Shown piece after piece: positions 1-50,132 of a DNA stretch of 64,000 nucleotides (positions within the stretch are counted from its first letter, which is position 1; each line of letters begins with the position of its first letter). The DNA comes from an uncultured Clostridia bacterium (GTDB lineage Bacteria > Bacillota > Clostridia > TANB77 > CAG-465): positions 4,247 through 68,246 of the forward strand of contig CALXJG010000002.1 in the NCBI GenBank assembly GCA_944388565.1. The letters run 5' to 3'. Below the pieces are notes generated by a model. The model was not told where the DNA came from, searched no databases, and was given only the letters and a program-made list of their open reading frames with translations. Both the position numbers and the translations under genes were made by a program.

Positions 1-21
1 CAATATATAGTGGTGAAGTAA

Positions 22-723: not shown

Positions 724-748
724 ATAAAGTGGCTATAAGTTTTTATAG

Positions 749-1378: not shown

Positions 1379-1394
1379 TTTACACCTCGTTATA

Positions 1395-1423
1395 AGTATA
1401 TATTTGTGTATATTATTTGTCAA
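1395..1423 (-). promoter_or_regulatory. sigma-A-type promoter for the pentapeptide-repeat gene
   Basis: On the minus strand: TTGACA, 17-nt spacer, TATACT. It is followed by GAGGTG and ATG 1378. Confidence 0.5.
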
Positions 1424-1436
1424 GAGATATAAAATT

Positions 1437-1471
1437 AAAAAGGTAGTACTTGTTATAAATACTACCTTTTT
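1437..1471 (-). terminator. intrinsic terminator hairpin (works in both orientations)
   Basis: AAAAGGTAGTA...TACTACCTTTT is a perfect ~11-bp stem flanked by A and T runs. It lies directly after the stop of the 1488-1952 gene. Confidence 0.6.
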
Positions 1472-1487
1472 AATTTTGTTACATTAT

Positions 1488-1952: not shown

Positions 1953-2101
1953 GATGCATACTCCTTACTTTGAATAAAAATTTTCTTATTCATATGGATT
2001 AAGATTAATAAATTATATCACATTATGTAAACAAAATCAAGTAACATTGTAATAAAATATATTATAATTTTGTAGAAAATGATAGAAATAAAAAGTTAGA
2101 C

Positions 2102-2130
2102 TTGCAAAACATTTTTTGCCGTGTTATAAT
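2102..2130 (+). promoter_or_regulatory. sigma-A-type promoter upstream of sufC-like gene
   Basis: TTGCAA, 17-nt spacer, TATAAT. The spacer contains the imperfect palindrome GCAAAA-cat-TTTTTGC, which could be an operator. Confidence 0.5.
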
Positions 2131-2162
2131 AATAAAGGATATAAAAAAGAAAGGAACTTAAA

Positions 2163-3804: not shown

Positions 3805-3810
3805 TAGTAA

Positions 3811-3845
3811 AAATAGCATGGTTAGTTTTCCATGCTATTTCTATT
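3811..3845 (+). terminator. intrinsic terminator after suf genes
   Basis: AAATAGCATGG...CCATGCTATTT 11-bp stem followed by T-rich sequence. Confidence 0.6.
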
Positions 3846-4595
3846 TGGGATTAAACCATAGGCAATGCCTATGGTGCAGGAGAGCCAAAGGCGTGGGTTT
3901 GCAAAAATCCCTAGCTTTCGATATAATAATAAAGGTTACCAGCCATATTAAAATAAAGAAAGGTAGGGATTTTTATGTCAAAAAAATTTGACAATGATAG
4001 TTTATCACATACAAGGTGGAATTGCAAATATCATATAGTATTTGCCCCAAAGTATAGAAGACAAATAATATACGGAAAAATAAAAAATGATATAGGAAAA
4101 ATATTAAGGACGTTATGTGAAAGAAAAGGAGTAGAAATAATAGAAGCAGAAGCATGTTCAGATCATATACATATGCTAGTAAGCATACCACCCAAAATAA
4201 GTATATCAAGTTTTATGGGATATTTAAAAGGAAAAAGTAGTTTAATGATATTTGATAGACATGCAAATTTAAAATATAAATACGGAAATAGAAAATTTTG
4301 GGCAGAAGGATATTATGTGGATACAGTAGGAAAAAATAAGAAAGTAATAGAAGAATATATAAAGAAACAATTACAAGAAGATATAGCAACAGACCAAATA
4401 GTAATGAAAGAATTTGTAGACCCATTTACAGGAGAAAAAAATGAAATAAACAAAAAGAAAAAAGGACCATTTCAATGGTAGCGAGAAAAAGTGGCGCAGC
4501 TGGCAATAATTTCAGTTGAGCTTGAGCTCATTGGCTGGTAACATCCCCTTATAGGGGTAGAGCAAACCACCCGTTATCACGGGTGGTTTATGATT
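3846..4595 (+). mobile_element. IS200/IS605-family (IS200-group, tnpA-only) insertion sequence; ends approximate
   Basis: A Y1 transposase ORF is flanked by subterminal hairpins. On the left is CCATAGG-caatg-CCTATGG (3856-3874). On the right are CCCCT-tat-AGGGG and AAACCACCCG-ttatca-CGGGTGGTTT (4564-4589). An 11-bp inverted pair GGTTACCAGCCA (3934-3945) / TGGCTGGTAAC (4532-4542) is also present. The region is locally GC-richer than its flanks. Confidence 0.65.
3975..4481 (+). CDS. tnpA: IS200/IS605-family Y1 (HUH) transposase TnpA
   Basis: 168 aa. It has the characteristic N-terminus ...HTRWNCKYHIVFAPKYRR, the HUH motif (DHIHMLVSIPP) and GYYVDTVG near the catalytic Tyr region. Confidence 0.9.
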   Translation: MSKKFDNDSLSHTRWNCKYHIVFAPKYRRQIIYGKIKNDIGKILRTLCERKGVEIIEAEACSDHIHMLVSIPPKISISSFMGYLKGKSSLMIFDRHANLKYKYGNRKFWAEGYYVDTVGKNKKVIEEYIKKQLQEDIATDQIVMKEFVDPFTGEKNEINKKKKGPFQW

Positions 4596-4673
4596 AAAAT
4601 TTATATATTTTTCATTAAATATATAGAAAAGTAAATACTCATATGATATAATTTAATTATTAGAGGTATGATT

Positions 4674-5390
4674 ATGGATTTTTTAGAAAAATTAGATGAT
4701 AAAGTTCTAGAAAAAATAAATGAAATAAAAGAAGAAATAAAAAGAGAGCAAAAGGAAATTTATAGTTTGTTATTAGAGATAACTAAAAGTTTTTCTGATA
4801 ATGAAAAAGATAAAAAATATAGAGATTCATTATTTGAACGAGTAGATTTATTAAATATAATAATAAAAGAGAATAACAAGAAAATAAATGACCTTAAAAA
4901 CGGCGAATATAAAGAAAACTTTAATTCTGTTATAAGTGATGTAAAAATAGATGATACTATTTCTGAGGTAGAAGAAATAACAAATGAACTAAAGGAATTA
5001 GAAGAATTAAAAAATGAAGAGAGTACAGAAAATATTGAAGAGATTAACTTAAATTTAGATAATGATATTGATGATTTTATAGAAGAAACAATAGAAATAT
5101 CAGAAGAAATAGTAGAAGAAGATGTGAGACCAGAAGAGCAAAATAATCCTAATGAATCTAAAAAAATTGATTTAAAAAAGGAATTAGAAGATATAGTAAA
5201 GCAAGTAAATGGAACTATAAACTCAGAAGAAGTTGTAGAAAAAGTACCGGTACTATTTAGTACTAGTAGTTATACAAATTCAAATAGTAGAAGGGCTAAT
5301 ACTCAGTTAATTGTTAGAGAAGAAAAAAACTCTTTTTCTGATAGAATAAAAGGAGTGTTAAATAGAATTAAGAAGTTAATTATTAAGTAA
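4674..5390 (+). CDS. hypothetical acidic coiled-coil protein
   Basis: Long Glu/Lys/Asn-rich ORF. I chose ATG 4674 because it is better spaced from AGAGG than ATG 4668. No family recognised. Confidence 0.55.
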   Translation: MDFLEKLDDKVLEKINEIKEEIKREQKEIYSLLLEITKSFSDNEKDKKYRDSLFERVDLLNIIIKENNKKINDLKNGEYKENFNSVISDVKIDDTISEVEEITNELKELEELKNEESTENIEEINLNLDNDIDDFIEETIEISEEIVEEDVRPEEQNNPNESKKIDLKKELEDIVKQVNGTINSEEVVEKVPVLFSTSSYTNSNSRRANTQLIVREEKNSFSDRIKGVLNRIKKLIIK

Positions 5391-5419
5391 AGACAACTAT
5401 TTTAGTTGTCTTTTATTTT
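5390..5419 (+). terminator. intrinsic terminator
   Basis: AAGACAACTA-ttt-TAGTTGTCTT followed by a T-run. Confidence 0.6.
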
Positions 5420-5546
5420 GTTTATTTATAAATTATAAGTTTGTGAAAATAAAATTTATCACTTTTACTTATTGGTACAAGAATGACATGCAAAATAATG
5501 TTGTTTTGGCATACTAGTATATTAAGAAAACAGGAGGAGATATTGT

Positions 5547-6239
5547 ATGTTAAGTATCTTAAGTAATTTATTTTCACATATATTGTTATTATTTGGTTAT
5601 ATTTCAAATAATAATTTATTTCCAGAACCCCTTACTAAGACTGAAGAAGAATATTATATTAGAAAGTATCTAGAAGGTGATAAAGAGGCAAAAAATAAGT
5701 TAATTGAACATAATTTAAGATTAGTTGCACATATAGCCAAAAAATATTCGTCTAATGAACAAGATATGGAGGATTTAATTTCTATAGGTACTATAGGTCT
5801 TATAAAAGCTATAAATAGTTTTAGTAGTGAAAAGAATTTTAAGATTAGTACTTATGCTAGTAGATGTATAGAAAATGAAGTATTAATGCATTTAAGAGCT
5901 ACTAAAAAGATTAAATCTGAAGTATCTATGAATACAATTATTGGAACTGATAAAGACGGAAACGATATGGAACTTTTAGAAACTCTAAATGCTAATACAA
6001 AAGATGCTATTGATACAATATATAATAAAGTGGTAGCAGACCAAGTTATAGATTATATAAATAATAAATTACCAAAAAGAGAGAAATATATAATGGAATT
6101 AAGATATGGATTAAATGGATTAAATCCTAAAACCCAACAACAGATAGCTAATGAACTTGGTATATCTCGTTCTTATGTGTCTAGAATAGAGACAAAAGTA
6201 CAAAATAAATTAAAGAAGCATATAAAATATGAAGAATAA
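5547..6239 (+). CDS. sigK: sporulation sigma factor pro-sigma-K (uninterrupted)
   Basis: It has a hydrophobic pro-sequence and then YISNNNLFPEPLTKTEEE, which matches the B. subtilis pro-SigK processing region YVKNNAFPQPL. It also has LIEHNLRLVAHIAKKY, DLISIGTIGLIKA and a C-terminal GISRSYVSRIE. SD is AGGAGGAG. Confidence 0.85.
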   Translation: MLSILSNLFSHILLLFGYISNNNLFPEPLTKTEEEYYIRKYLEGDKEAKNKLIEHNLRLVAHIAKKYSSNEQDMEDLISIGTIGLIKAINSFSSEKNFKISTYASRCIENEVLMHLRATKKIKSEVSMNTIIGTDKDGNDMELLETLNANTKDAIDTIYNKVVADQVIDYINNKLPKREKYIMELRYGLNGLNPKTQQQIANELGISRSYVSRIETKVQNKLKKHIKYEE

Positions 6240-6529
6240 TATTTTGTTTTAAATATAAAAATGTAAAAAAATAAAAGGAAATAAATCCTTTTAACTATAA
6301 TATAAAAGATAAAGGTAATATAAATGATAAAACCCTTTTCTAAAAGGTGGGCATCCCGTTGTAACCATTAGGATTCTCTATTTAAAGAGCTTTCAACACA
6401 AGTTACAATTCCCGATTCCCGTTCAAAATTCTTGTAGATTTTCATATAAATTATTACCTCTATCTGTATATATTTTATCATTAATTATTATAAAAGTAAA
6501 TACTTATTGTGTTTTTCTTTAAAGCTTTT

Positions 6530-8104
6530 CTATATTTTTTTATATAAAGTATTTCCATTTTTTATTGTTTCTAATATTTTTATATTTCTAATGTCATCTA
6601 CATTTATTTTTAGTGGATTTTTATCAATAATTATTAAATCGGCTAACTTTCCTTCTTTTATACTTCCTTTTTTATCTTCTTCAAAATATTGATAAGCACT
6701 ATTTATTGTTACTGACTTTATGGCATCTATAACTGGAATTCTCTCATCTTTACCAAGTAACTTACCACTTTTAGTTAATCTACATGTTGCAATCCATATT
6801 GTTTCAAACATATTAGGTTCTATTACAGGTGAGTCTTGGTGTAGTGTAAATATTACATTTTCTTTTAATGTACTATTTGTAGGACTTATATTACTTGCTC
6901 TTTCATATCCAAAATTTTTTATATGTATATCACCGTAGTAGAAAACATGGGATACAAAAAAAGATGGAATTATATTATATTTTTTAAGATATTCGATTTG
7001 GTCTATGCCAAGTAATTGTGCATGTATCATAACTGGTCTTAAAGATTTAATATCATTTTTATATTTTTCTATACTATTTATATATTGTTCTGCTGCTTTA
7101 TCTCCATTGCAGTGGGCAAGAAGTTGTAGATTTGAATCTATAGCAGCTTTTACTGAAAGTTCGACATCACTATCTTTCATAGTTCCATATCCAAAATAGT
7201 TTTTATCATCAATATATGGAGTTCTCATCCAAGCGGTTTTTCCTTGAGGAGAACCATCTAAAAATATTTTATATCCTCCAATTTTAAAATGTTTATAATA
7301 TTGTTTTATGCTATTTTTAAATGTATTGAAAAATATTTCTTTATTTTTTACTTCTATGTATGATACTAAATCTATATTTAATATATCATTTGAAATTAGG
7401 TTTTCATATATTGGAATTAAAGAAGAATATGTCATACCATCTTGTGCTGTGGTAATACCATAAGATAAGTATTTGTATTGTGCTTTTTCATATGCTTTTA
7501 ACAATTCCTCTATTTTTGGCATAGGGACTTGCTTTTGGTACTCTAAAAAAGAATTTTCTTCCATGTAACCTGTTAAATCTCCGTTTATTTTTTCTATAAA
7601 ACCTCCATCTTTTGCAATTGTATTATTTGAGATATTTAATTCTTTTAAAGCTTTACTATTAAATACCCCTACGTGACCTGATTTATGTTCTAAAATTACA
7701 GGATTATTTGGTAGAACTTCATCAATAATTTCTTTTTTTGGATGTGCTTTTTCATCTAGATTGTTATGATCATAACCATGAGCTAAAATCCATTTACCAT
7801 CAACTATATTGTTATCTTCTTTATATATTTTTAGTTTTTCTTGAATTTGTTTAAAATTTGAGCAATTTTCTAAATTTACTTTTAAAAAGTTAGTAGCAAC
7901 ACCGGAAAGATGGCTGTGTGCATCTATAAAAGAAGGCATCATAGTATGTCCTTTTAGGTCTATTATCTCTGTCATATTATCTTTATTTTTTAAGATATCT
8001 TCTTTTTTACCAGTAGCTTTTATTATCCCATCTTCTATAAAAATTGCCTCAATATTATTATTCTCTAAGGTAATGAAATCACCATTATAATATATTTTTT
8101 TCAT
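6530..8104 (-). CDS. amidohydrolase-family metal-dependent hydrolase (YtcJ-like)
   Basis: 524 aa. It has the PSFIDAHSHL metal-binding motif near the N-terminus and an LADLIIID-type C-terminal motif typical of the amidohydrolase_3 family. Confidence 0.75.
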   Translation of the reverse strand: MKKIYYNGDFITLENNNIEAIFIEDGIIKATGKKEDILKNKDNMTEIIDLKGHTMMPSFIDAHSHLSGVATNFLKVNLENCSNFKQIQEKLKIYKEDNNIVDGKWILAHGYDHNNLDEKAHPKKEIIDEVLPNNPVILEHKSGHVGVFNSKALKELNISNNTIAKDGGFIEKINGDLTGYMEENSFLEYQKQVPMPKIEELLKAYEKAQYKYLSYGITTAQDGMTYSSLIPIYENLISNDILNIDLVSYIEVKNKEIFFNTFKNSIKQYYKHFKIGGYKIFLDGSPQGKTAWMRTPYIDDKNYFGYGTMKDSDVELSVKAAIDSNLQLLAHCNGDKAAEQYINSIEKYKNDIKSLRPVMIHAQLLGIDQIEYLKKYNIIPSFFVSHVFYYGDIHIKNFGYERASNISPTNSTLKENVIFTLHQDSPVIEPNMFETIWIATCRLTKSGKLLGKDERIPVIDAIKSVTINSAYQYFEEDKKGSIKEGKLADLIIIDKNPLKINVDDIRNIKILETIKNGNTLYKKI

Positions 8105-8168
8105 ATACTAACCACCCATTATAGATAATTATATTATTAACTAACAAATTTTTTTTATACTTTTAGTA

Positions 8169-8714
8169 TTATTTAAAAGATTCGAATCTATCTTTTAATA
8201 CATTATATACTTTATCTATATCACAATCTGCATTTCCTAAATCAATTATTATATGCTTCCCAAAATTTTTTATATTATTATTGATTCTTTCTTTAATAAA
8301 ATCATCACTTATTGAAATTATATCATCGATATTATTTAAATCAATACCAATAAATTTTTTTGTATATATTTCATTTTTTGTATTAAATTCTTTATTAATA
8401 ATATCTATTGATTTTATTTCATCCCATTTTATATTATTAAAAATTGCAAAGTTTGTATTATCTATTATTCCGTCACTTGTTATGCTAAATATTTCTTTAG
8501 GATTTTTTAATTGTAAGACTAATGATATAATATTATATCCAAATACAAAAATAAAAACACCGGCAAAAATTCTTGCTAATATAACGAGAAGTTTAACTGG
8601 TAGTAAATTAGAAAATATTATCATCAAAATTGATATTACTATTAATATAGCATTATATGTTATTAAATAAAGTAGTTTCTTTTTACTTTGCAATATTGTT
8701 ATATTTTCATCCAT
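8169..8714 (-). CDS. hypothetical membrane protein (two N-terminal TM helices plus a soluble C-terminal domain)
   Basis: 181-aa ORF with AGGTGA upstream. The opposite-strand ORF 8281-8670 is low-complexity and was rejected. Confidence 0.6.
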   Translation of the reverse strand: MDENITILQSKKKLLYLITYNAILIVISILMIIFSNLLPVKLLVILARIFAGVFIFVFGYNIISLVLQLKNPKEIFSITSDGIIDNTNFAIFNNIKWDEIKSIDIINKEFNTKNEIYTKKFIGIDLNNIDDIISISDDFIKERINNNIKNFGKHIIIDLGNADCDIDKVYNVLKDRFESFK

Positions 8715-8881
8715 TTAGATTCACCTAAGTATTATTATACCATATATTATACAGAAAAACTATTAATATATTTTAATATTATATAATCTTTTTAGGATGT
8801 TAAAAATATATAATAAGGCAGAAAGTATAGATATATATTTATAATTATGGTATAATGTGATTGATAGTACGGAGTGTTGAT

Positions 8882-21870: not shown

Positions 21871-21908
21871 AAATATATGGGTATATATTTTTATATACCC
21901 ATATATTT
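21871..21908. terminator. bidirectional terminator hairpin between convergent genes
   Basis: AAATATATGGGTATATA / TATATACCCATATATTT 17-bp stem. Confidence 0.55.
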
Positions 21909-23169
21909 ATAATATTTTTCATTTCCTCTTTTTTTCTTTTTCTTTTTACGTGTATTAAATAATATAACTAATAACAAAATAATTATAATTGCTATACATG
22001 TAATTAATATATTATCTTTTAAATTAAATTCGTAGTAAACTTCTTTATCTATTATTTTTAAATCATAACTATTTATTAAAGAATTATCTTCATCATTAAT
22101 TTCAGAAAATTTTATATTTAGTTTACCAATATTATCATTTGAAATTTCATTTAAATTTATATCAATATCATATTCTACTTTATATTTAGTTGAAGTAATA
22201 AGTGAATATATATCTTCATCCAGTCCAACTTTATATTTTACTTTATTTATTTTATCTGTTATTGTAAATGTGTAATCATTTTTATTTATTATCAATTCAT
22301 TATTAAAATTATCAAATACATAGTTACTAAGATTTTTTGTATCTAAAAATTTTGCATTTTGTGCTTGTGAACCATTAAATGCACCTATTATTATTGTTTT
22401 ATTATCTTTTTTACAAAAACCAATAAAAGTTCCCCTGGCTTCTTCTGTATAACCTGTTTTACCTCCAATCATATATTCATAATATGATGCAGTATATCTT
22501 TCATCTAACATTCTATTTGTATTTATAAGTTTAGTTTCTTCTGGTGATTTATTTGTAGGTGGGATTATATATTCTTTTGTAGAAATTATTTGTCTAAATA
22601 CTTCATTATTTAGACAATATCTAAATAACTTTGCCATATCATATGTAGTTGAATAATGATTGTCATCATGGAAGCCATGTGGATTAGTAAAATGAGTATT
22701 ATTACATCCAAGTTCTTTTAATTTTTCATTCATTAATACTACAAAATCATCGACATTTCCACTTACTGCTTCAGCAAGAACTATAGCAGCGTCATTGCCT
22801 GAAGGAAGTAATAGCCCATATAATAGTTGCTCAATTGTAAAAATTTCTTCAGCTTTTACTCCCATTACAGAACTTCCGATAGGGTGTTGAATCTACTGCA
22901 TTTTTAGAAACTACAACGGCAGTATTTAGATCCATCTTTTCAATAACAAGTATAGCAGTTAGAATTTTTGTTGTACTAGCTGGATAAACTTTTTGATTAA
23001 TTTCTTTACTGTAAAGTATTTTTCCTGAATCATAATCCATTACTATATCTGATGTACAGAGTAAATTTAAACTTTCAGCACCGTATACATTATTATTTAA
23101 AAAAGAAAATAGTGTAAGAATAACACTGAATATAACTAATTGAAATCTTAGCTTTTTAATAATTATCAC
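21891..23169 (-). pseudogene. serine-type D-Ala-D-Ala carboxypeptidase (PBP5/DacB/DacF-like) disrupted by a 1-nt frameshift
   Basis: The upstream ORF carries the signal peptide and the SxxK motif (ASTTK). The downstream ORF carries SGN (LPSGNDAA) and the C-terminal domain and anchor. The frames join if one base is removed near 22878-22884, giving ...VSKNAVDSTPIGSSVMGVKAEE... The start is approximate. Confidence 0.75.
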
Positions 23170-23230
23170 CTCTAGTTTAAAATATATTATATAATAATTT
23201 AGTCTAAAAGAAAAGAAGGGAGATGAAAAA

Positions 23231-23785
23231 ATGGAAAAAATTAAAAATATAATTTTAAAATATAAAACATATATAATATGTTTAATAATTATCATTTTAT
23301 CTATAATATCAATTATATTTCAAAATATTGATAGAAAGAACTTAGAAGAAGTAAATAAAAAAGAAAACACCGAGAATGGAGAAATTGCTGTATATATAAC
23401 AGGAGCAGTAAAAAATCCAGGAGTGTATTATATCAAAGAAAATTCTAGATTAAGTCATTTACTTGATATATGTGGAGGAATACTAGAAAATGCAGATATA
23501 AATAAGTTAAATCTTGCTCAAAAATTAGTTGATTCTGATAAAATTACTGTACCAACAAAACAAGAAAAAGAAGAAAATGAGGATGAAAATGAAGATGAAA
23601 AAATAAATATTAACACAGCCTCTAAAGAAGAACTAATGACTCTAGATGGAATAGGTGAGAGTACAGCATCTAAAATAATTGAATATAGAAAAACAAGTGA
23701 ATTTATAGAAATAGAAGATATAATGAATGTATCTGGAATAGGCGAGGCTAAGTTTAATAATATAAAAGATAATATCACTGTATAG
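23231..23785 (+). CDS. comEA: competence protein ComEA (SLBB plus helix-hairpin-helix DNA receptor)
   Basis: N-terminal anchor, then VYITGAVKNPGVY (SLBB) and C-terminal tandem HhH (INTASKEELMTLDGIGESTASKIIEYR...VSGIGEAKF). Confidence 0.85.
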   Translation: MEKIKNIILKYKTYIICLIIIILSIISIIFQNIDRKNLEEVNKKENTENGEIAVYITGAVKNPGVYYIKENSRLSHLLDICGGILENADINKLNLAQKLVDSDKITVPTKQEKEENEDENEDEKININTASKEELMTLDGIGESTASKIIEYRKTSEFIEIEDIMNVSGIGEAKFNNIKDNITV

Positions 23786-23831
23786 GGCTTATTTTAAAAT
23801 GGTATGCATAAAATTATTATAGGTGAATTTA

Positions 23832-24467
23832 ATGAGATATTATATATATCTAGATAAGGAGTTCTTAAGGACACTTTTTTCAGTATTTGATGATAATAAT
23901 TTAAATATTGAAGTTGTAGAGTTTTCAATTAGAAAAAGTTTTAGCAAAAATAATGGATTCTTGATTGATCCATGTGTTGAAAATATAAAGCAATGTGAAG
24001 AATTTTGTAGAGAAGGTGATAGAGAAGATCGTGGAGGAATGAAAAAAGACAATATTGGAAAAGAAAAAGTAGGAGCACGTTTTGATCATGGAAATTCATA
24101 TAGCGTTCAAACAGAAAAAAGATATTTAAATATTGAAGATATAACAAATATGAAAAATATTCATTTTTATCATAAGTTACTTGAAGATATATGTACTACA
24201 GGAAAGAAAGGAGATAGAATTATAGAAGAAGTTGGGTATATAAAAATAAATAGAAATAATAGTAGTAGATTAACGTCTAATAATGAAAGTGATGATTTTT
24301 TTATGATAAATGATTGTTTTGTGTGGATTGATAAAACAAAACTTAATGGGAATTTAGAATTACTTTCACAAATGTCTTGTAAGATAAAAGTTATAGGATA
24401 TATGATGAATTGCAAAGAAGAAAATAAAAATAATATAATAAAAGCAATAGCAATATTTATAGAATAA
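23832..24467 (+). CDS. hypothetical protein
   Basis: 211 aa from ATG 23832, which is preceded by AGGTGA. It is same-strand and downstream of comEA, and followed by a terminator. No family is firmly recognised. Confidence 0.55.
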   Translation: MRYYIYLDKEFLRTLFSVFDDNNLNIEVVEFSIRKSFSKNNGFLIDPCVENIKQCEEFCREGDREDRGGMKKDNIGKEKVGARFDHGNSYSVQTEKRYLNIEDITNMKNIHFYHKLLEDICTTGKKGDRIIEEVGYIKINRNNSSRLTSNNESDDFFMINDCFVWIDKTKLNGNLELLSQMSCKIKVIGYMMNCKEENKNNIIKAIAIFIE

Positions 24468-24493
24468 AAAACGAGTATATTCTACTCGTTTTT
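24466..24493. terminator. bidirectional terminator
   Basis: AAAAACGAGTA-tattc-TACTCGTTTTT lies between convergent genes. Confidence 0.6.
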
Positions 24494-25514
24494 ATCCATT
24501 ATTATCTATTATACTTTGTATATCATTAATATTGTTATTAACTGAAACTATAAATTTATCAGCTAAATTAGGATCAAACTGCGTTCCACTGCATCTTTTA
24601 ATTTCTTCTAAAGCGGATTGTATAGAACGTTCATCTTTATATGATCTTCTTGAAACGATTGCATCGAAACTATCACATAAAGAAAGTACTCTAGCTAGAT
24701 ATTCTATATTTTCTCCCTTCAATTTGTCTGGGTAACCATTACCGTCATATCTTTCGTGATGGTGTTTTATAATTGGAACAATATCTTTAAAAATATCTGA
24801 AACTGAAAATATATTTGCTGCTATTACAGGATGAAGTTTTATAGTATCATATTCTTCATCTGTTAATTTTCCTTCTTTTAATAACACACTATCTGGGATA
24901 CCAATTTTTCCAACGTCATGGAAAGAGGCAGCCTTTAGTAAATTATCAGTACTTATATCATCTAGTTCTAAAAACTTTGCAAATAATCTACAGTATGAAG
25001 TAACTCTTTTTGAATGTTCACCTGTATAATTATCTTTTGCTGTAATTGTATTTAGTAATATTTGTGCAAAATCAAACAAATAATGGTCTAGTTTTAAGTT
25101 AATAGATTTAACTTTTCTTAATTGTTCTATATATTTAATTCCTGATTGTATCATTATTATCAATTGATCAAATCTAGAACTTTTTTCAAAATAAGCTTGT
25201 ATATCAAGTGTTTGCATTGTTTCAATAGAAGGAGTTAAATCTTTATGCATTGACATAAGAATTATATATATTTCTTTATCAAATTCTCTAACAAGTTCAA
25301 CAACTCTATCACCGTTTACAGGAGACATTAGATAATTTACAAGAAGTATATCATATTTATTTGCTTTTAACTCTTCTATAGCAGATACTGGTTCGGTAAA
25401 AGTGCTAACTGTATGACCGTAACCTTTTAGAATTTCAGATATGATTTCCATCATATTTACATCTTCGTCAATTATTAATATTTTGGCATTTTTAATAGTT
25501 TCATCGTTGCTCAT
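24492..25514 (-). CDS. response regulator with HD-GYP domain (putative c-di-GMP phosphodiesterase)
   Basis: N-terminal receiver (ILIIDED...DILLVNYLMSP). C-terminal HD-GYP domain with HDVGKIGIP and HHERYDGNGYP motifs. Confidence 0.85.
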   Translation of the reverse strand: MSNDETIKNAKILIIDEDVNMMEIISEILKGYGHTVSTFTEPVSAIEELKANKYDILLVNYLMSPVNGDRVVELVREFDKEIYIILMSMHKDLTPSIETMQTLDIQAYFEKSSRFDQLIIMIQSGIKYIEQLRKVKSINLKLDHYLFDFAQILLNTITAKDNYTGEHSKRVTSYCRLFAKFLELDDISTDNLLKAASFHDVGKIGIPDSVLLKEGKLTDEEYDTIKLHPVIAANIFSVSDIFKDIVPIIKHHHERYDGNGYPDKLKGENIEYLARVLSLCDSFDAIVSRRSYKDERSIQSALEEIKRCSGTQFDPNLADKFIVSVNNNINDIQSIIDNNG

Positions 25515-25623: not shown

Positions 25624-26514
25624 ATGTCACATTTTGACGAACGATTTTTCTTGACTTTTAATTTATCTAGTGTTATATTGTTGTTACAAGGAGGTGATTA
25701 TATATATGCACTGATATTTATTATTTTTTCTTTACTTATATCATATAATTTAATCTCAATATATTATGTACAAAAGAAATCTAAGAATATTAATTTTAAT
25801 TCAAACAATTTGTTTAAAGAAAGATTTTATTTTCTAAGGAATTACTTATCTAAAATTTTTCAGTATTTATCTAATTCTGGTAACCCGTATGGTCTTACCG
25901 TAAAAAGATATATTATTATAAAATACATTTTATCTGTGATTTTGTTTATCATATCTATTATTAATACATCTAATATATTTATTTCGTTAATTGTTTTACT
26001 AATTCTATATTTTTTACCAAATATTTTAGTTGAATTATCATTAAAAGCAGAAAGCATAAAAATAATAAATGACATATCAAACATCGTTCAAAATATCGTA
26101 CTATCACTATCGGCTAATATGCTATTATATGATTCATTAAAAAATTCCGTAGATAATATAGAAAATAAAAGGTTTAAAAAAGAATATAGTATATTTGTAA
26201 ATAATTATAGAATGTATAATTTTAACATTGTAAAGGCAGTAGATGAGTTTAGTCAAAAATTTTCTTTTTATGAGTTTAATATGTTTTTATCTTTACTTAT
26301 TCAAGGTGAAAAAGAAGGAAATCTTTTAGAGTTGTTAGAAAGCTTTATAGAAAATCTAGATATAACATATTTTAAATACTTAAAATATAAATCAACTCAA
26401 AGGTTAGTGGTAATAATTTTTACTACTTTTATTTCTATAGTAAACAGTTTTTTAATAGTTTTGTATCCAATTGTTATACAAGTTTCACAAAGTTTTACAG
26501 ATATTTTTAAATAA
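25624..26514 (+). CDS. TadB/TadC-like (T2SSF-domain) pilus platform membrane protein; start uncertain, possibly frameshifted
   Basis: Polytopic. The cytoplasmic block between TM helices (...IINDISNIVQNIVLSLSANMLLYDSLKN...EFNMFLSLLIQGEKEGNLLELLESF...) has the T2SSF layout. ATG 25624 lacks an SD. A promoter, an SD and an out-of-frame ATG lie inside the ORF (see findings). Confidence 0.5.
   Translation: MSHFDERFFLTFNLSSVILLLQGGDYIYALIFIIFSLLISYNLISIYYVQKKSKNINFNSNNLFKERFYFLRNYLSKIFQYLSNSGNPYGLTVKRYIIIKYILSVILFIISIINTSNIFISLIVLLILYFLPNILVELSLKAESIKIINDISNIVQNIVLSLSANMLLYDSLKNSVDNIENKRFKKEYSIFVNNYRMYNFNIVKAVDEFSQKFSFYEFNMFLSLLIQGEKEGNLLELLESFIENLDITYFKYLKYKSTQRLVVIIFTTFISIVNSFLIVLYPIVIQVSQSFTDIFK
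25651..25679 (+). promoter_or_regulatory. sigma-A-type promoter for the pilus-like cluster (inside the ORF-track N-terminal extension)
   Basis: TTGACT, 17-nt spacer, TATATT. It is followed by AAGGAGGTGA (25688-25697). Confidence 0.45.
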
Positions 26515-26524
26515 AGGAGGAATT

Positions 26525-26719
26525 ATGCATAGTAAAATTAAAAATGCAGTATTAAAGATAAAAAGTGGTACTGCAATGACAGAATCAATATTACTAATAG
26601 GTATATCACTAGCAATAATAATTATTGTATTTTATCCACAATTAAAGGAATTAGTTAATGACACTTTAAATACAATTTCTATTTGGTTTAAAAGTACATT
26701 AGGAAATATAGGTATGTAA
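26525..26719 (+). CDS. Flp-type (type IVb-like) prepilin
   Basis: 64 aa from ATG 26525, which is preceded by AAAGGAGG. The leader ends ...KIKSG and is followed by TAMTESILLIGISLAIIIIVFY. This gives Gly at -1, Glu at +5 and a hydrophobic helix. Confidence 0.55.
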   Translation: MHSKIKNAVLKIKSGTAMTESILLIGISLAIIIIVFYPQLKELVNDTLNTISIWFKSTLGNIGM

Positions 26720-26720
26720 A

Positions 26721-27398
26721 ATGAATAAAAAATATGTCTTAATAATATTAATAATAGCGATGTTCATTTATTTTATTATTACATATATATTTTTTAATTT
26801 TATTACAAAAGACAATATAGAAAATGTAATTGTTATTAAGGAAGATTTATATCGTGGCCAAAAAATAGAGGAAAAAAATTATATACAAGTTAGTATAAGA
26901 AGTGGAAATATAAATAATGTAGCAAGTGTAGATGATATTAGTAATAAAGTATTAAATTGTGACTTGAAACGAGGACAAATATTACTTAAGGATTATTGTA
27001 TAAATGCTGAAGAATATATTTCTTCTACTAATTTAAAAGAAATAATTTGTTTAAATATAGAAAATTCAGATGATTTTGTTTCATATCAAGTTGCAAAAGA
27101 CAGTATTGTTAATGTATATTATACAGGAAAAACAGAATTTGCAACTAGTATTGCAGAAGAAATAAACGTACCTAATATTAAGAGTAATGATAATACAGGT
27201 TATATATCTTTTAAATTGTTAGAAAATGTAAAAATCATTGATGTATTTGATAAATATGGGAACAAAGTAAATAAGAAAAAAGAAAATATGGACAAGCTTG
27301 ATGTATATTCTATAATGATTGAAGTAGAAAAAGAGATGATAACAAGAATAAATAATTTAAAAAACTATGGTAAATTTAGTTTATCAATTATAAAGTAG
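26721..27398 (+). CDS. CpaB/RcpC-like pilus assembly protein (SAF domain)
   Basis: N-terminal TM helix, then VIVIKEDLYRGQKIEEKNY...VDDISNKVLNCDLKRGQILLKDY, matching the CpaB SAF-domain pattern. Confidence 0.55.
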   Translation: MNKKYVLIILIIAMFIYFIITYIFFNFITKDNIENVIVIKEDLYRGQKIEEKNYIQVSIRSGNINNVASVDDISNKVLNCDLKRGQILLKDYCINAEEYISSTNLKEIICLNIENSDDFVSYQVAKDSIVNVYYTGKTEFATSIAEEINVPNIKSNDNTGYISFKLLENVKIIDVFDKYGNKVNKKKENMDKLDVYSIMIEVEKEMITRINNLKNYGKFSLSIIK

Positions 27399-27408
27399 GA
27401 GGTATAAA

Positions 27409-27768
27409 ATGATTGTAGCAACTTTATATGATGAAAAAAATGAAATGATAAAAGAAAAGGTTGATAAATTAAAAGAATATACTATTACATCTGACTATTT
27501 AAAAGAGTATACTTTTAAATATATTAATAAAATAAATGCTAATAGTAGATATGATATATGCATTATATTATCTAATGAAATTGATCAGATAAATAAGTAT
27601 ATAAGTAAAATTAAAGATTTAAAAAAATGTATTATAGTGACAGGTGTTTTAAGTGCAGATCATGTATTAGCATGTATAAATATAACAGACAATTTAAGCT
27701 ATCTAAATAGTCCACCAAATGTTATTTTAGAAAAGGTAATAAAAGTTTATGAGGAAAGAAACTTTTAA
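27409..27768 (+). CDS. hypothetical protein, possible degenerate receiver-like fold
   Basis: 119 aa with a strong SD (AGGAGGT). It has an alternating beta/alpha pattern (IVATLYD, DICIILSNE, CIIVTG). No acceptor Asp is evident. Confidence 0.4.
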   Translation: MIVATLYDEKNEMIKEKVDKLKEYTITSDYLKEYTFKYINKINANSRYDICIILSNEIDQINKYISKIKDLKKCIIVTGVLSADHVLACINITDNLSYLNSPPNVILEKVIKVYEERNF

Positions 27769-28324
27769 ATACATTATTCTAATTATTTGTTGTTTATGTG
27801 TAATGATTTTTACTTTTATTTTAAAAGAAGGTTTGTATAACATAAAAAAAGAAGATAAAAGTTTTATAAAAAATAAATATATAGATATTGGTGTTGGTAT
27901 AGAGAATATGTATTCTAATAGATATGTTGATATTTCTAAAGAAAAACAGCAAGTAGTAGTAGGTAATAATAAAAATGAAGTTGATAATGGCTATTTTGAT
28001 ATAAAAATTTTAAGTGATGGAAAAATTAACGTATATATAAATAAATTGTTTAAGGATAAATTTAGTAATGAGAATTTAATAGATTATATATATTTAGATG
28101 AATTGATAAATAGTTTAAATAAAATATTTAATATGAACTTAGATGATGAGGCTATTAATAATATAAAAAAACTAGTAGGGGACAAATATATTAAGTTAAG
28201 GGAAACAGAAAATGTTGATAATGTGAATAAAAGCATAAAAGAAGAAATAATAATGGTGCAAAATTATAGTATAAAATTAGATTATATGGATAATATGCTA
28301 ATGTTGGCGATTAATGAGGTGTAA
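27749..28324 (+). CDS. hypothetical N-anchored protein
   Basis: 191 aa with one TM helix (YIILIICCLCVMIFTFIL). It overlaps the previous gene by 20 nt. Confidence 0.5.
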   Translation: MRKETFKYIILIICCLCVMIFTFILKEGLYNIKKEDKSFIKNKYIDIGVGIENMYSNRYVDISKEKQQVVVGNNKNEVDNGYFDIKILSDGKINVYINKLFKDKFSNENLIDYIYLDELINSLNKIFNMNLDDEAINNIKKLVGDKYIKLRETENVDNVNKSIKEEIIMVQNYSIKLDYMDNMLMLAINEV

Positions 28325-29924
28325 TGTGAGAAAGATAGTATTTAAATATATAATTTTTTTATCTTTTTTATTTATATTTAAAAGTAAGTGCCTAGGAGTA
28401 AGTGATAGTTTTAAATTTATAATAGATACTATAGGTATACCGCAGTATAATGTACTTGGTGATGAAATTAATGAAGAAATATATAATGCATATAATTTAT
28501 TTGTATATTCAAATCCACTTGCCATGTATTCTAGAACTGCTACTCAAAGATTTAAAGAAGTAAAAGATAATGGAAAATGGTGTGAAAATGGAGGAAGATA
28601 TTGCGGTTATGGAAAAAGAGGTGAATATAATGTATTAGGTGTTAGTTATAGCGGTTCAATTATAAATAATGTATATTTTCCTGTTGACAATGTTCCAGAA
28701 GTTACTCCAGATTATTGGAATTTTATATTAGTTCCTGGTGCATATGAATCTTGGCAAGATACTAGCAAATATAAATACAATGAGCAACTAGAATATATGA
28801 AAAATACAAAATTGTTATTTGATAAGATTGACTATAAAAATAATATATCTGACTCATATAATTTAGTGGAGTATAATCTATCATCTAATTCTATAGGATT
28901 AAATAAAGCAAAGCTAAATGTCTCTTCTACTTGGAAAACGGGAGGTATTATAACAGTAAGAAGAATAAATAATAAAGGAGAAATTAGAGTTGCAACTATG
29001 GCTACTAAACCTATGGCGGCAAATGCAAATGTTAAGTCAAATTTAAAAGTTGATAATAAACTAACTTTAAAAAGAGGAGAGAAGATTAAAATACCGATTA
29101 CTTTTGGAGCAGAAGCAATAAATTTAAATGAATATGCCAAAGTAGAACATATAAAAAAGATTGTTTCAACAATATATATAGATGATGTAGAAGTATCTAA
29201 AGTTGAAGGGGGGAGAGCTAAAGATATTAAAAAATCTATAATATATAATTTAGAAAATGAAAAGTTCAATAATTCTGGTACCTATAACATTAATATTAGA
29301 GTATCTAGTTATCTATATACAGATTTTTATGTTGATGGCTTAATGCAAGATACTATAGAAAAAAATATTACCATACAAATAGAAAAAGAAGAAATAGTTC
29401 CAGTAGAAAAAATTGATGTAAAAGTACTAGAAAAAGAAAATAATGATTATATAATTAGAGATTTTATAAAAAATAAAGATACTTTAAATAATTCAGTAGG
29501 ATTGATACAAAATTCTAAATATATTGCTATTAATGTAAAGTATGATGATAGATTAGAACAAAAAGAAGAAATTAAGGTATATATTAATGATAAAGAAGTT
29601 AAAATTGAAAAGATAAAAGAAAATCTAAATTGTATAATATATAAAATTAAATTAGATGGATGTAAAAATACATTACTCGGATGGAGTGAAAGTAGAAATA
29701 GAAGTAAAAATTATTTTAATATAGATTTTGGAAAAATAGGAAGTAGAATTAATGAGCCAAATTGTATAAAAATAATAAATATTAGTGATTCTAAAGAGTA
29801 TGAAAATAAAATTTATTTTGATGTAATTGATGATTATAAATTAAATATAAACTATATTTTAAATAATGTTTTAAATAAGGATAGTCTTAATAATAAAATT
29901 AGATTAGATGAATGGATAATATAA
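28314..29924 (+). CDS. large secreted hypothetical protein
   Basis: 536 aa with a signal-peptide-like N-terminus (IIFLSFLFIFKSKCLG). An alternative GTG start at 28326 follows GAGGTG. The uninterrupted ORF in AT-rich DNA argues for real coding. Confidence 0.6.
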   Translation: MRCNVRKIVFKYIIFLSFLFIFKSKCLGVSDSFKFIIDTIGIPQYNVLGDEINEEIYNAYNLFVYSNPLAMYSRTATQRFKEVKDNGKWCENGGRYCGYGKRGEYNVLGVSYSGSIINNVYFPVDNVPEVTPDYWNFILVPGAYESWQDTSKYKYNEQLEYMKNTKLLFDKIDYKNNISDSYNLVEYNLSSNSIGLNKAKLNVSSTWKTGGIITVRRINNKGEIRVATMATKPMAANANVKSNLKVDNKLTLKRGEKIKIPITFGAEAINLNEYAKVEHIKKIVSTIYIDDVEVSKVEGGRAKDIKKSIIYNLENEKFNNSGTYNINIRVSSYLYTDFYVDGLMQDTIEKNITIQIEKEEIVPVEKIDVKVLEKENNDYIIRDFIKNKDTLNNSVGLIQNSKYIAINVKYDDRLEQKEEIKVYINDKEVKIEKIKENLNCIIYKIKLDGCKNTLLGWSESRNRSKNYFNIDFGKIGSRINEPNCIKIINISDSKEYENKIYFDVIDDYKLNINYILNNVLNKDSLNNKIRLDEWII

Positions 29925-29925
29925 T

Positions 29926-30345
29926 ATGTTAATTCTAAAAAAAGGTAATATAGAAGTAACTTTTCTTTCTATGATATTTGTATTTTTAATAATAGTATTA
30001 ATGACAGTATATTTTTTACATATGCAGATAAACTTACAAATTTATCCGATTAAGCAAGACATTTTCTACATCGTACAAAATTCATATTTTTCTATGGATA
30101 TTAATGAATTAGCATTTAATAATTATGTTGTAGATGAAAAAATATTAAAAGAAAAAATACAAAATTTAATAAATATAAATTATGACAATGTAGTAATTGA
30201 ACAACTAGAATTTGATAAAAATATAAAAAAAGTAAAAATAAAGTTAAAAGTATCTGTGTCACCAATAATATTAAAAAATTATATTGGAGATATAAATATA
30301 ATGGTATATGATGAAATTAAGTTAAAGACAATGGATGTGAATTAA
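29926..30345 (+). CDS. TadE-like pseudopilin-type protein
   Basis: 139 aa. A short leader ends in KKGN and is followed by IEVTFLSMIFVFLIIVLMTVYF. Confidence 0.4.
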   Translation: MLILKKGNIEVTFLSMIFVFLIIVLMTVYFLHMQINLQIYPIKQDIFYIVQNSYFSMDINELAFNNYVVDEKILKEKIQNLININYDNVVIEQLEFDKNIKKVKIKLKVSVSPIILKNYIGDINIMVYDEIKLKTMDVN

Positions 30346-30749
30346 TGTATAAAAATAATAAAGGAAATACAATAGTTTCTGCACCACTTATATTATTTTT
30401 TTCAGTAATAGTTATAGTTCTTATTGGTTATTTTTTCATAAATTTAATTATTCCTTTTATTTTATATGAAAAGTTAAATAGCATTTCACAAAAGTATATG
30501 TATATAATAGAAAAATATGGTTATTTAACAGATGAAGAAAATGAAAATTTAATTTTTGATTTGAGTAAATCTGGATTTGATATTAATAATGTAGTAGTTG
30601 AAGCTCCTAAAAGACATACTACATATGGTGAGCTTATACAATTTAGCATAAAATATAAGTTTAAATATATTATACCTGTTTTTTCAACTAATACTAAAGA
30701 GGAAATGATTGAAATTGTAGTTAATAAAGTGAGCTATTGTAAGATATAA
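30345..30749 (+). CDS. TadE/DUF4320-like pseudopilin-type protein
   Basis: 134 aa. The leader MYKNNKGN is followed by TIVSAPLILFFSVIVIVLIGYFF. Its start overlaps the previous stop. Confidence 0.4.
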   Translation: MYKNNKGNTIVSAPLILFFSVIVIVLIGYFFINLIIPFILYEKLNSISQKYMYIIEKYGYLTDEENENLIFDLSKSGFDINNVVVEAPKRHTTYGELIQFSIKYKFKYIIPVFSTNTKEEMIEIVVNKVSYCKI

Positions 30750-30750: not shown

Positions 30751-30778
30751 AATACAACTCACAAATGTGAGTTGTATT
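30751..30778. terminator. bidirectional terminator between the pilus-like cluster and mecA
   Basis: ATACAACTCACA-aa-TGTGAGTTGTAT 12-bp stem. Confidence 0.55.
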
Positions 30779-31400
30779 AAATTGTTTTTAACTTTTGTAA
30801 AGCATTATTTGCTATTATTAATTTTCCTTTTTCTTTTATATATGTTTCATATAAGTCATAAGAGTAGTAGTTATTGCAATACTCAGATAAGAAAACATAT
30901 GTCTTTAAGAATTTTGGATTTTTAATAGATGATTTACTAAAGATTATGTAGTATAAATCATTTAATTTATATAAACTATTTTTTCCAAAAAATAAATTTT
31001 CTGCTTTAGCTTTTTCACAAATTAAAAGAATATTATCTATATTTTGGAAAGAATATACGTTACTATCAACAGTATATTTTATATTATTTGAAATTTTTTT
31101 CTTGCTATGAACTCCCTTTGATTCAATTAGAGAATATTTTTTTAAATCGGGTAAGTCTTCAACTTTTGTTATAGTTACAATGAATAGATTATTATTATCA
31201 GAACTTGCTTCGATAAAAAGATGTGAATCATCGATTACAAATTCGCTATCAAGGTTAGATTCTTCAAGTAAGTCTATAAATAAGTCTTTAGCAATTGTAG
31301 AATTTTTTTCGATATCGCTTAAAGATATTTTTCTTTTTTCTAATTCTTCAAATGTAAGGGTGATTCTTACTTTATTATCACTTAATTTTTCTACTTTCAT
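30777..31400 (-). CDS. mecA: adaptor protein MecA
   Basis: The N-terminus MKVEKLSDNKVRITLTFEELEKR... is typical of MecA. The 207-aa size and two-domain layout also fit. Confidence 0.8.
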   Translation of the reverse strand: MKVEKLSDNKVRITLTFEELEKRKISLSDIEKNSTIAKDLFIDLLEESNLDSEFVIDDSHLFIEASSDNNNLFIVTITKVEDLPDLKKYSLIESKGVHSKKKISNNIKYTVDSNVYSFQNIDNILLICEKAKAENLFFGKNSLYKLNDLYYIIFSKSSIKNPKFLKTYVFLSEYCNNYYSYDLYETYIKEKGKLIIANNALQKLKTI

Positions 31401-33792: not shown

Positions 33793-34671
33793 ATGGAGAC
33801 TTTTAAAGTGGGAGATATAGTAGCAAGAAAATCATATAATTATGATGTGCTTTTTAAAGTTACAAAAATAAATAGTAATGGAATAATAGATCTTGCGGGA
33901 CTAACTGTTAGAATAATTGCTGATGCTCCTGAATACGACTTGAAACATATAAGCAAAGAAGAGATGGAAAAAAGGATATTAAATACAGAAAAAAGTAGAA
34001 TGGCAAGAATAAATAGATGTTATATGAATATGAATAAAAAAATAAATGGATACAATAATCTAAGAGAGCAAATATCAGTAGACGATAGTCCAAATATTTT
34101 TAAGAAAGAGTCAATCTTAAAAAAGCCAGGAATTGTTTTACATATAGATGGCGATCCTGAATATACCAATAAATGTAGAGAAAACTATAAAAAAATGGGA
34201 GTCACTGCTTATACGTATAATATTCCTGAACAAGAACAATATAAACAAATATATTCATTATTACAAAAAATTAGACCCAATATTTTAATACTTACAGGGC
34301 ATGATGCTTTTATAAGGAAGAAAAATGATATATATAATATAGATAATTATAAAAATTCAAAATATTATATACAAGGAGTACTAGAAGCAAGACGATATGA
34401 ACATAATTTAGATAATCTTGTAATATTTGCAGGAGCTTGCCAAAGTTATTATGAAGCTATTTTGTCAGCCGGAGCAAATTTTGCAAGTGCACCAAAAAGA
34501 GTTTTAATTGATATGATGGATCCACTTATAGTTGCACAAACAATAGCATATACACCGGTGGATGATTTTGTGCCAATTGCAAATATAATAAGTAATACAA
34601 GAGAGGGAATAAGTGGAATTGGAGGAATACAAACTAGAGGGCAATATAGAACAGGGATGCCAGGACTATAG
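33793..34671 (+). CDS. yabG: sporulation-specific protease YabG
   Basis: An SH3-like N-terminus FKVGDIVARKSYNYDVLFKV, then LTGHDA...GACQS motifs typical of peptidase U57. Confidence 0.8.
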   Translation: METFKVGDIVARKSYNYDVLFKVTKINSNGIIDLAGLTVRIIADAPEYDLKHISKEEMEKRILNTEKSRMARINRCYMNMNKKINGYNNLREQISVDDSPNIFKKESILKKPGIVLHIDGDPEYTNKCRENYKKMGVTAYTYNIPEQEQYKQIYSLLQKIRPNILILTGHDAFIRKKNDIYNIDNYKNSKYYIQGVLEARRYEHNLDNLVIFAGACQSYYEAILSAGANFASAPKRVLIDMMDPLIVAQTIAYTPVDDFVPIANIISNTREGISGIGGIQTRGQYRTGMPGL

Positions 34672-49316: not shown

Positions 49317-50132
49317 GTGAGCAGCAAAGCTAAGGTCGTTATCATAGACGATAATAAAGAATTTGTAAAATTATTAAGCATGTATATTGATACACAAGAT
49401 GATATGGAGGTTGTAGCAACAGCATATGATGGACAAAATGTTGTAGATATTATAAAGGAACAAAATCCTGATGTATTGCTTCTAGACATTATAATGCCTG
49501 AAAAAGATGGACTATCTACTTTAGAAGATTTGATAAAATCAAATGATGTAAAAATGCCAACTACTATTGTCATGTCTGCAATAGGTCAAGAAAAAATTAC
49601 TCAAAAGGCTATTGCTCTTGGCGCTACATATTATGTAGTAAAACCTTTTGACATGGCTACTTTAGTAGAAAGATTGAGAGATTTACTTCAAACTGAAGAA
49701 CAATATATCTCAAATAATGGAACTAAATGTTATACTAAAACTACAATTAATAGTAGTTCGTCTTCATCAACACCAATAGAGGTTAGAGCCACTAATATTA
49801 TTCATGATGTTGGTGTGCCAGCACATATAAAAGGTTATCAGTATATTAGAGAAGCAATATTACTTGCTGTAAAAAATGAGGATGTAATAAATTCAATAAC
49901 AAAAACTTTATATCCTACACTTGCTACAACATTTAATACTACGCCTTCTAGAGTAGAAAGAGCTATAAGACATGCGATCGAAGTGGCTTGGAATAGAGGG
50001 CAAATTGAAATGCATGATAAAATTTTTGGTTACACTGTAAATTCAAATAAAGGAAAACCAACAAATTCGGAATTTATTGCTATGATAGCTGATAGACTTA
50101 GACTAGAAGATAGGGCAACTATTAGAAGCTAA
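49317..50132 (+). CDS. spo0A: sporulation master regulator Spo0A
   Basis: Receiver domain (VIIDDN...[10 protein letters not shown]) plus the diagnostic Spo0A C-terminal DNA-binding domain ([16 protein letters not shown]...[15 protein letters not shown]). GTG start after AGGAGGAA. Confidence 0.9.

Follow-up and report, generated by a model that had tools for sequence, protein, structure and literature searches.

Eight genes (g1 to g8) at positions 25624-30749 of the forward strand of a 64-kb stretch of chromosomal DNA (~25% G+C) from an uncultured gut Clostridia bacterium, the whole of which is referred to below as the window, probably constitute a Tad/Flp-type (type IVc) pilus operon that is functional although incomplete. 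The ATPase needed to drive the assembly of such a pilus is, in our judgement, fairly likely to be supplied in trans, and the striking lack of a motor at the locus most probably reflects the dispersal of its genes. A pilin, a platform protein, an ATPase and a prepilin peptidase are the defining parts of type IV filament machines, and Tad loci are as a rule compact. The evidence presented here involves the identity of the eight products, a prepilin peptidase gene recovered outside the window, the conservation of the module among related genomes, and its homology with the distal part of canonical Tad operons.

The Operon and Its Products

The eight open reading frames (ORFs) all abut or overlap, and are read as follows:

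g1, 25624-26514, forward strand: predicted polytopic platform protein of the T2SSF family (TadB/TadC type), 296 residues
g2, 26525-26719, forward strand: predicted major prepilin of the Flp type, with a class III signal peptide, 64 residues
g3, 26721-27398, forward strand: N-terminally anchored SAF-domain protein, CpaB/RcpC-like, 225 residues
g4, 27409-27768, forward strand: small soluble (cytoplasmic) protein without recognisable family, 119 residues
g5, 27749-28324, forward strand: N-terminally anchored extracytoplasmic protein without family match, 191 residues
g6, 28314-29924, forward strand: surface protein secreted by the Sec route, with an Athe_2463 domain at its N-terminus and Ig-like beta-sandwich domains after it, 536 residues
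g7, 29926-30345, forward strand: pilin-shaped protein whose short, basic leader ends in KKG / N and precedes a hydrophobic helix, 139 residues
g8, 30345-30749, forward strand: DUF4320-like, pilin-shaped protein with a leader ending NKG / N, followed by a hydrophobic helix, 134 residues

An earlier reading of the window made from its letters alone (the sequence-only reading) had likened g1 to T2SSF/TadB-TadC proteins, g2 to Flp-sized prepilins and g3 to CpaB/RcpC-type SAF proteins, and each of these assignments was upheld by family-level searches. The product of g1 is predicted to be a divergent T2SSF platform protein. The window copy itself scores below the Pfam T2SSF threshold (E = 0.008, 16.5 bits against a cut-off of 25.2); T2SSF is matched by 5 of 15 aligned members of its family (best 2.3e-7), and precomputed PF00482 labels are found on many orthologues. 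The topology fits as well, with hydrophobic segments at residues 16-49, 95-141 and 260-288 and a single T2SSF domain at approximately residues 156-281, placed between hydrophobic segments as in TadB and TadC. A profile search against PDB sequences returned nothing significant for g1, and its ratio of nonsynonymous to synonymous substitution (dN/dS) is 0.125.

The true start of g2 is the ATG at 26525, which is preceded by a strong Shine-Dalgarno site, and cleavage is predicted at ...KIKSG / TAMTES. In an alignment of 14 orthologues, the Gly at -1, the Glu at +5, an F, a P, a WF pair and a C-terminal G are invariant, and Flp1_like is matched by 12 of the 14 (best 4.9e-7), the window copy being sub-threshold (E = 9e-4, 19.1 bits against a cut-off of 33.5). 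These features identify g2 as a putative Flp-type prepilin. With g3, the SAF domain was detected above the Pfam cut-off (25.4 bits against 21) together with a weak RcpC match (E = 0.026), and its orthologue in a sister lineage described below carries weak precomputed matches to both SAF and RcpC. Given only E = 0.17 against TIGR03177 (pilus_cpaB), the protein is classed from its domain matches as CpaB-like rather than as an equivalog; a profile search of the PDB returned only the SAF domain of FlgA (E = 0.04).

Two side observations concern g1. In the deepest branch of relatives (L009 and L020), the orthologue has a longer N-terminus (335-338 residues; L009:10001-11008) and a pairwise dN/dS of 0.88, compared with ~0.18-0.25 for neighbouring genes; its annotated N-terminus may be partly non-coding, or selection on g1 may be relaxed in this branch. 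In a 308-residue ENA protein (P0008), the C-terminal half is that of g1 (100% identity) and the N-terminal half is unrelated; this apparent fusion was set aside, being most likely the product of a chimeric metagenome assembly.

The products of g7 and g8 are candidate minor pilins, as judged from their leaders and overall shape, and would probably provide the minor pilins expected of a Tad system. Gly7 of g7 is invariant in 12 orthologues, and the corresponding leader Gly of g8 is kept in 13 of 14. The two proteins have in common only a leader of 16 residues of the K-K-G-N type. A TadE/DUF4320-like character had been proposed for both; it stands for g8, where Pfam DUF4320 is matched by 3 of 14 orthologues (best 2.3e-5) with no Pfam TadE match, and is not confirmed for g7, for which no Pfam or other hidden Markov model (HMM) match was obtained, TadE included. 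No papers on DUF4320 were found. Homologues of g8 adjoin flp in two canonical Tad loci (L036 and L041).

The only product of the operon that is neither membrane-bound nor secreted is g4. The earlier description of g4 as receiver-like is unsupported: no Pfam, NCBIfam or PDB match was obtained, Response_reg was matched by none of 13 orthologues, the best hit of a PDB profile search was to VraR at E ~1, and a single-sequence AlphaFold2 model (confidence score, pLDDT, of 41) was too poor for a fold search. The protein is conserved, with one invariant Thr and a dN/dS of 0.145. The idea that g4 is a TadZ remnant found no support, as hhalign of the g4 family with the TadZ-like protein of L036 showed no similarity. 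As had been proposed, g5 is an anchored protein, its transmembrane segment spanning residues 3-30, and neither Pfam nor NCBIfam yielded a match for it.

The Secreted Protein g6 and the Athe_2463 Family

The best-conserved product of the operon is g6, for which the proposed signal peptide is indeed present and of the Sec type. Residues 52-227 cover positions 1-174 of the 177-position NCBIfam Athe_2463 domain model (NF047340) with an E-value of 1.2e-15 (58.5 bits against a cut-off of 36). A confident AlphaFold2 model of g6 (pLDDT 91.5) begins with an alpha/beta domain, after which Ig-like beta-sandwiches are strung in a row, and when this model was compared to the PDB with Foldseek, only generic matches to Ig-like, adhesion and S-layer proteins were found, all with TM scores below 0.25; a profile search against PDB sequences gave nothing significant. 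The family is rare, an exhaustive profile search having recovered 139 representatives among 1.84 billion proteins, while more distant Athe_2463-type proteins are surface proteins of 500-2600 residues. A guess from the modelled fold and the neighbouring genes is that g6 is probably a pilus-associated or wall-associated adhesin.

The eponymous Athe_2463 of Caldicellulosiruptor bescii is an extracellular protein with a signal peptide and of unknown function, reported as a component of the xylan- and xylose-induced secretome with no stated link to pili (PMC5865380). Its similarity to g6 is confined to ~175 residues, and g6 differs from it in being encoded within a pilus-type operon.

Missing Motor Components and a Peptidase in trans

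No T2SSE ATPase, ParA/AAA_31/CbiA/TadZ protein or A24 peptidase was found in the window by Pfam scans combined with precomputed labels; the scans covered previously unannotated ORFs of at least 110 residues, labels transferred from conspecific contigs covered the rest of the 15-37 kb region, and the ribosomal-protein/SecY block at 38-48 kb was judged by position only. Walker A motifs occur in the window only in DnaB, FtsH, ClpC, MgsA and SufC, and a local HMM based on five T2SSE ATPases recovered in this study found nothing in the window or in any locus of the clade. The earlier remark that the ATPase, TadZ and the peptidase are not encoded in the 64 kb is confirmed, and only one platform gene was found there.

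That the missing parts might be served in trans was one of the options raised by the sequence-only reading, and for the peptidase it now has direct support. A conspecific contig (L024), found through the first protein of the window (ThiF), shares 99.3-99.7% nucleotide identity with window positions 1-8792, an IS200-type insertion apart. It carries an orphan Peptidase_A24 gene (251 residues, L024:6509-7264) situated 2.7-3.5 kb left of the start of the window and hence ~29 kb upstream of g1. In the encoded protein, the two catalytic Asp motifs are present (IPDE, GFGDVK) and a Cys-rich N-terminal (methyltransferase-type) domain is lacking. Its gene is flanked by genes for a HAD/PGP phosphatase and a metallo-beta-lactamase-fold protein, outside any pilus operon, and type IV filament genes are therefore dispersed in this genome. 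The A24 enzyme is a plausible processing enzyme for g2, g7 and g8 with their invariant Gly. The Tad system of Bifidobacterium breve likewise has its prepilin peptidase encoded at a separate locus (Pelicic 2019, PMC6916266).

Of the features that mark Tad (type IVc) systems, a Flp-type prepilin, a T2SSF platform and a SAF protein are thus present in the operon and a peptidase is present only in trans, while a TadA/CpaF ATPase, a second platform paralogue and TadZ/CpaE were not found in the sequence examined.

Conservation and Selection

The synteny comparison that had been called for earlier established that at least 11 related species-level genomes keep the module gene for gene and between the same neighbours, with amino-acid identities of 30-75%. 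These 11 species representatives are metagenome-assembled genomes of uncultured "Clostridia", "Bacillota" or "Clostridiaceae", and further examples were provided by metagenome contigs. The order in this main clade is comEA, a gene encoding 214 residues, an HD-GYP gene (reverse strand), g1 to g8, mecA (reverse strand) and rpsF. The exact g1 protein was found on contigs from many samples, always beside the same genes. In the deepest branch (L009 and L020), a g4-like gene of 152 residues replaces g4 and g5, and a gene of 73 residues replaces g7. With L014 and L015, a pair for which dS is unsaturated (0.12-0.29), dN/dS values are 0.12-0.34 for all eight genes. A tblastn search of 72,556 plasmids with g1 and g6 gave no match.

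A decaying remnant, or an artefact of the assembly of a canonical tad operon, might be suspected of a locus that is missing key genes, the more so as the canonical relatives described below have these genes immediately upstream. We regard this as very improbable. Decay, an option left standing by the sequence-only reading, is rejected because of the dN/dS values and because the eight ORFs are intact in the 11 or more species-level genomes and persist in a sister lineage, and no ATPase fragments were detected by HMM in the flanks. The related proposal of a canonical operon whose tail was cut off by assembly is half right: as an artefact it fails, the same HD-GYP left boundary being present on many independent contigs from different samples and the module recurring in a second conserved context, but homology to the distal part of canonical operons is real.

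This second context is found in the sister lineage (L021, L022 and L050; 28% G+C), where it is flanked on one side by MazE/spore-maturation-type (Gate-domain) genes and on the other by a SPOUT methyltransferase gene. The order there is g1 (276-305 residues), Flp (67-68), the CpaB-like protein (230-245), sometimes a gene of 99 residues, an SLH-domain protein (419-423 residues) at the position of g5, g6 (554-557), g7 and g8; no ATPase was found within 10 kb of the module, and neither comEA nor an HD-GYP gene is present at this site. Because of the gene set and site of the sister lineage, the core of the module is delimited as g1, g2, g3, g6, g7 and g8 together with a variable wall-associated protein, and the comEA/HD-GYP neighbourhood is placed outside the conserved unit.

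The same lineage bears on the idea of a DNA-uptake pilus, in which the Flp filament would work with the neighbouring comEA. In both the window and all genomes of the main clade, comEA is found ~2 kb upstream of the operon on the same strand, and Tad pili are required for transformation of Micrococcus luteus, according to a study cited in a review (Angelov 2015, cited in PMC6916266). Between comEA and the operon, however, are an unrelated gene of 214 residues and the oppositely oriented HD-GYP gene, nothing else in the operon is related to DNA, and the sister lineage carries the module without comEA nearby. The link to DNA uptake entertained in the sequence-only reading gains no support, and a role of this kind is considered unlikely.

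Canonical Relatives and Origin

A scan of metagenomes with the N-terminal domain of the distant Athe_2463-type proteins identified 25 loci, in 5 of which Tad genes were recognised by family HMMs. The layout of L036, from marine sediment (28% G+C), is that of a canonical Tad operon (L036:2462-17530). It encodes, in order, a ParA-like AAA_31 protein (448 residues), a T2SSE ATPase (436), a polytopic protein (302), a g1-like protein (263) and Flp (73); these are followed by a g8-like protein (127), a 172-residue protein, a g3-like protein (231), a Cu_amine_oxidN1 protein and an Athe_2463-type protein of 2579 residues. In L036, L039, L041 (also from marine sediment) and L043, homologues of g1, g2 (Flp1_like), g8 and g3 and an Athe_2463-type protein are encoded downstream of or beside genes for a TadZ-like protein, a second polytopic protein and a T2SSE ATPase. 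L039 and L043 each have two Tad loci that include such ATPases, L043 with an A24 peptidase of TadV size as well, and two platform genes were recognised in L036, L039 and L043.

These loci thus share with the window operon the g1, g2, g8 and g3 homologues and the Athe_2463-type protein, but they differ from it in having TadZ (AAA_31), T2SSE and a second platform gene directly upstream, in their gene order, and in the size of the Athe_2463-type protein, which reaches 2579 residues. Because the distant loci carry tadZ-tadA-tadB directly upstream of the homologous genes, the window operon is read as the distal half of a Firmicutes Tad operon that has become detached, and the lack of tadZ, tadA and the second platform gene as a derived state common to the two lineages. 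A wall-associated protein always precedes the Athe_2463 gene, be it g5 in the window, the SLH protein in the sister lineage or the Cu_amine_oxidN1 protein in L036. The L036 operon suggests that Athe_2463-domain proteins are recurrent partners of Tad loci.

Proposed Mechanism and an Alternative

In the proposed mechanism, the A24 peptidase encoded ~29 kb upstream would cut the three proteins with the G motif, g2, g7 and g8. The major pilin g2 would then be polymerised on a platform containing g1, with assembly driven by a T2SSE-family ATPase encoded elsewhere, either the TadA/CpaF of another tad locus or an enzyme of the PilB/ComGA type. The g7 and g8 proteins may serve as priming or tip subunits, g3 and g5 may join the machine to the envelope, and g6 would be the pilus-associated or wall-associated adhesin. 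The lineage-specific envelope set would consist of g4, g5 and g6.

Several observations weigh against this proposal. No T2SSE ATPase was found in the 64 kb, in 12.5 kb of conspecific flanks (10 kb to the left and 2.5 kb to the right of the window) or within 10 kb or less of the module in ~16 related loci, and an ATPase acting in trans is an assumption, the search for it having covered loci and flanks. The operon has a single T2SSF gene, as do the 64-kb window and every related locus, and two platform paralogues (TadB and TadC) are regarded as a hallmark of type IVc machines (PMC6916266). In addition, no family could be recognised for g4, g5 or g7, the role proposed for g6 is a guess based on its fold and neighbours, and Athe_2463-type proteins adjoin Tad genes in only ~5 of ~13 distant loci with usable flanks.

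Some of the same facts could be explained if the module, although derived from a Tad system, no longer built an ATPase-driven pilus, g1 to g3 having been co-opted into an envelope apparatus that would anchor, display or help to export g6 and would either have no T2SSE motor dedicated to it or use a non-cognate one. In every genome of the two lineages, the vicinity of the module is devoid of the ATPase, TadZ and the second platform gene, g6 is the most conserved product, and the position immediately before the Athe_2463 gene is invariably occupied by a wall-associated protein. Nevertheless, a T2SSE ATPase is required by every type IV filament machine characterised (PMC6916266, PMC6668835; established knowledge), g2 bears in its invariant Gly-1 and Glu+5 the hallmark of a pilin that is processed and polymerises, a prepilin peptidase is present in the genome, and dispersed type IV filament genes are common. 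Co-option is thus viewed as unlikely. A similarly small chance is given to genomes of the clade being without any cognate TadA/TadZ/TadB set, such that a motor-independent module would borrow ComGA or PilB, or a static scaffold would display or release g6; if true, no earlier conserved system derived from type IV filaments would have been without an ATPase of its own. A pilus operon with its motor encoded elsewhere is hence the reading that we retain.

Genomic Setting

The eight same-strand ORFs had been placed in the sequence-only reading between a divergent HD-GYP gene and a convergent mecA, a layout that was reproduced with the same coordinates for the ORFs. The flanking features are:

24492-25514, reverse strand: response regulator with REC and HD-GYP domains (Pfam Response_reg, HD_5 and HD), divergent from the operon and 109 bp upstream of it
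30751-30778, both strands: bidirectional hairpin resembling an intrinsic terminator, with a 12-bp stem and T tracts on each strand, between g8 and mecA and closing both the operon and mecA
30777-31400, reverse strand: mecA, convergent on the 3' end of the operon

The REC-HD-GYP gene adjoins the module in all main-clade genomes and not in the sister lineage, and it is treated here as a neighbour of the operon. Sites with terminator-like hairpins numbered 2, against 0.3 expected. The 214-residue ORF directly after comEA (23823-24467, forward strand) has no Pfam match, and its position is kept in nearly all related genomes at 32-71% identity. Housekeeping genes of the window include an rpsF-ssb-rpsR operon, dnaB, ftsH, clpC and spo0A, and the 38-48 kb block looks, from its position and ORF sizes, like a large ribosomal-protein operon ending in SecY.

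A search of the full 64 kb with Rfam at the gathering threshold gave no family match, and no riboswitch was found upstream of the operon. This blank was obtained despite apparent ribosomal-protein operons and tRNA-synthetase-type neighbourhoods in the window; leader and riboswitch RNAs may be too divergent for Rfam in this AT-rich lineage. The insertion that distinguishes the window from its conspecific contig L024 is of the IS200/IS605 type with a Y1 transposase (window 3841-4593; ORF 3975-4481, forward strand) and is a strain-level polymorphism. The gene for a D-Ala-D-Ala carboxypeptidase (Peptidase_S11; 21891-23295, reverse strand) is present as two overlapping ORFs of 324 and 148 residues, is split in some conspecific contigs too, and is intact in L006 (423 residues), the split being a frameshift polymorphism or a homopolymer sequencing error. 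Genes for Spo0A (49317-50132, forward strand), YabG (Peptidase_U57; 33793-34671, forward strand) and SpoIID (L024:431-1807) were identified, from which the uncultured host would seem to form endospores, its very low G+C content notwithstanding.

Significance

In this module, the pilin-and-platform half of a Tad system has been inherited alone through deep divergence, at two genomic sites and under purifying selection. Its existence bears on the modularity of these machines, on the sufficiency of a single platform paralogue and on which ATPase serves a detached platform. Linking the little-known extracellular Athe_2463 family to Tad-type loci also provides a testable idea as to its role. If the ATPase is simply encoded elsewhere, the value of the result is limited to a helpful annotation and a caution that loci of this kind should not be called incomplete; should a cognate ATPase be lacking from whole genomes of the clade, it becomes highly interesting. 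The hosts are uncultured gut Clostridia, whose surface filaments are of current interest, and a pilin of another uncultured clade has been reported to affect the response to immunotherapy (PMC11680825).

Comparison With Known Systems

The closest described parallels are found with the Tad systems of monoderm bacteria, such as tad2003 of B. breve and the tad loci of M. luteus. In common with these, the window locus has a tiny Flp pilin with a class III signal peptide, two more pilin-like proteins, a T2SSF platform protein and no secretin, together with a separate peptidase locus as in B. breve (PMC6916266). It differs in being without TadA/CpaF, TadZ or TadG and in having one platform paralogue, as well as in possessing a CpaB-like gene, an Athe_2463-domain protein, g4 and g5, all of which the monoderm Tad systems lack.

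A conserved Tad pilus cluster has also been described in TANB77, an uncultured order of gut bacteria (Kim et al. 2024, PMC11680825). It resembles the window operon in being of the Tad type, limited to uncultured gut Clostridia with reduced genomes, and rich in unrecognisable pilin-like genes (PMC11680825). That cluster, however, is complete, encoding CpaB, TadZ, CpaE, a TadA of 640 residues, a TadC-TadB fusion and seven pilin-like proteins that differ in size from those of the window (PMC11680825), and it is thus a different Tad cluster, distinct from the window operon. If the window lineage belongs to TANB77, this cluster would be an obvious candidate for the donor of the ATPase.

The ComG competence pseudopilus of the Firmicutes is another monoderm type IV filament, the peptidase of which, ComC, is encoded separately. 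Based on established knowledge and the Pfam scans, the window locus is comparable to ComG in its separately encoded peptidase and in the proximity of comEA. No ComGA, two-domain ComGB or ComGC-type pilins were detected in the operon or the window by these scans; the platform protein of the window has one T2SSF domain where that of ComG has two, the pilin is Flp-sized (~49 residues when mature) and not ComGC-like, and a CpaB-like gene is present. Among these systems, the locus is filed as a Tad-type module that is like the pilin-and-platform half of a type IVc system, and not as a complete Tad system.

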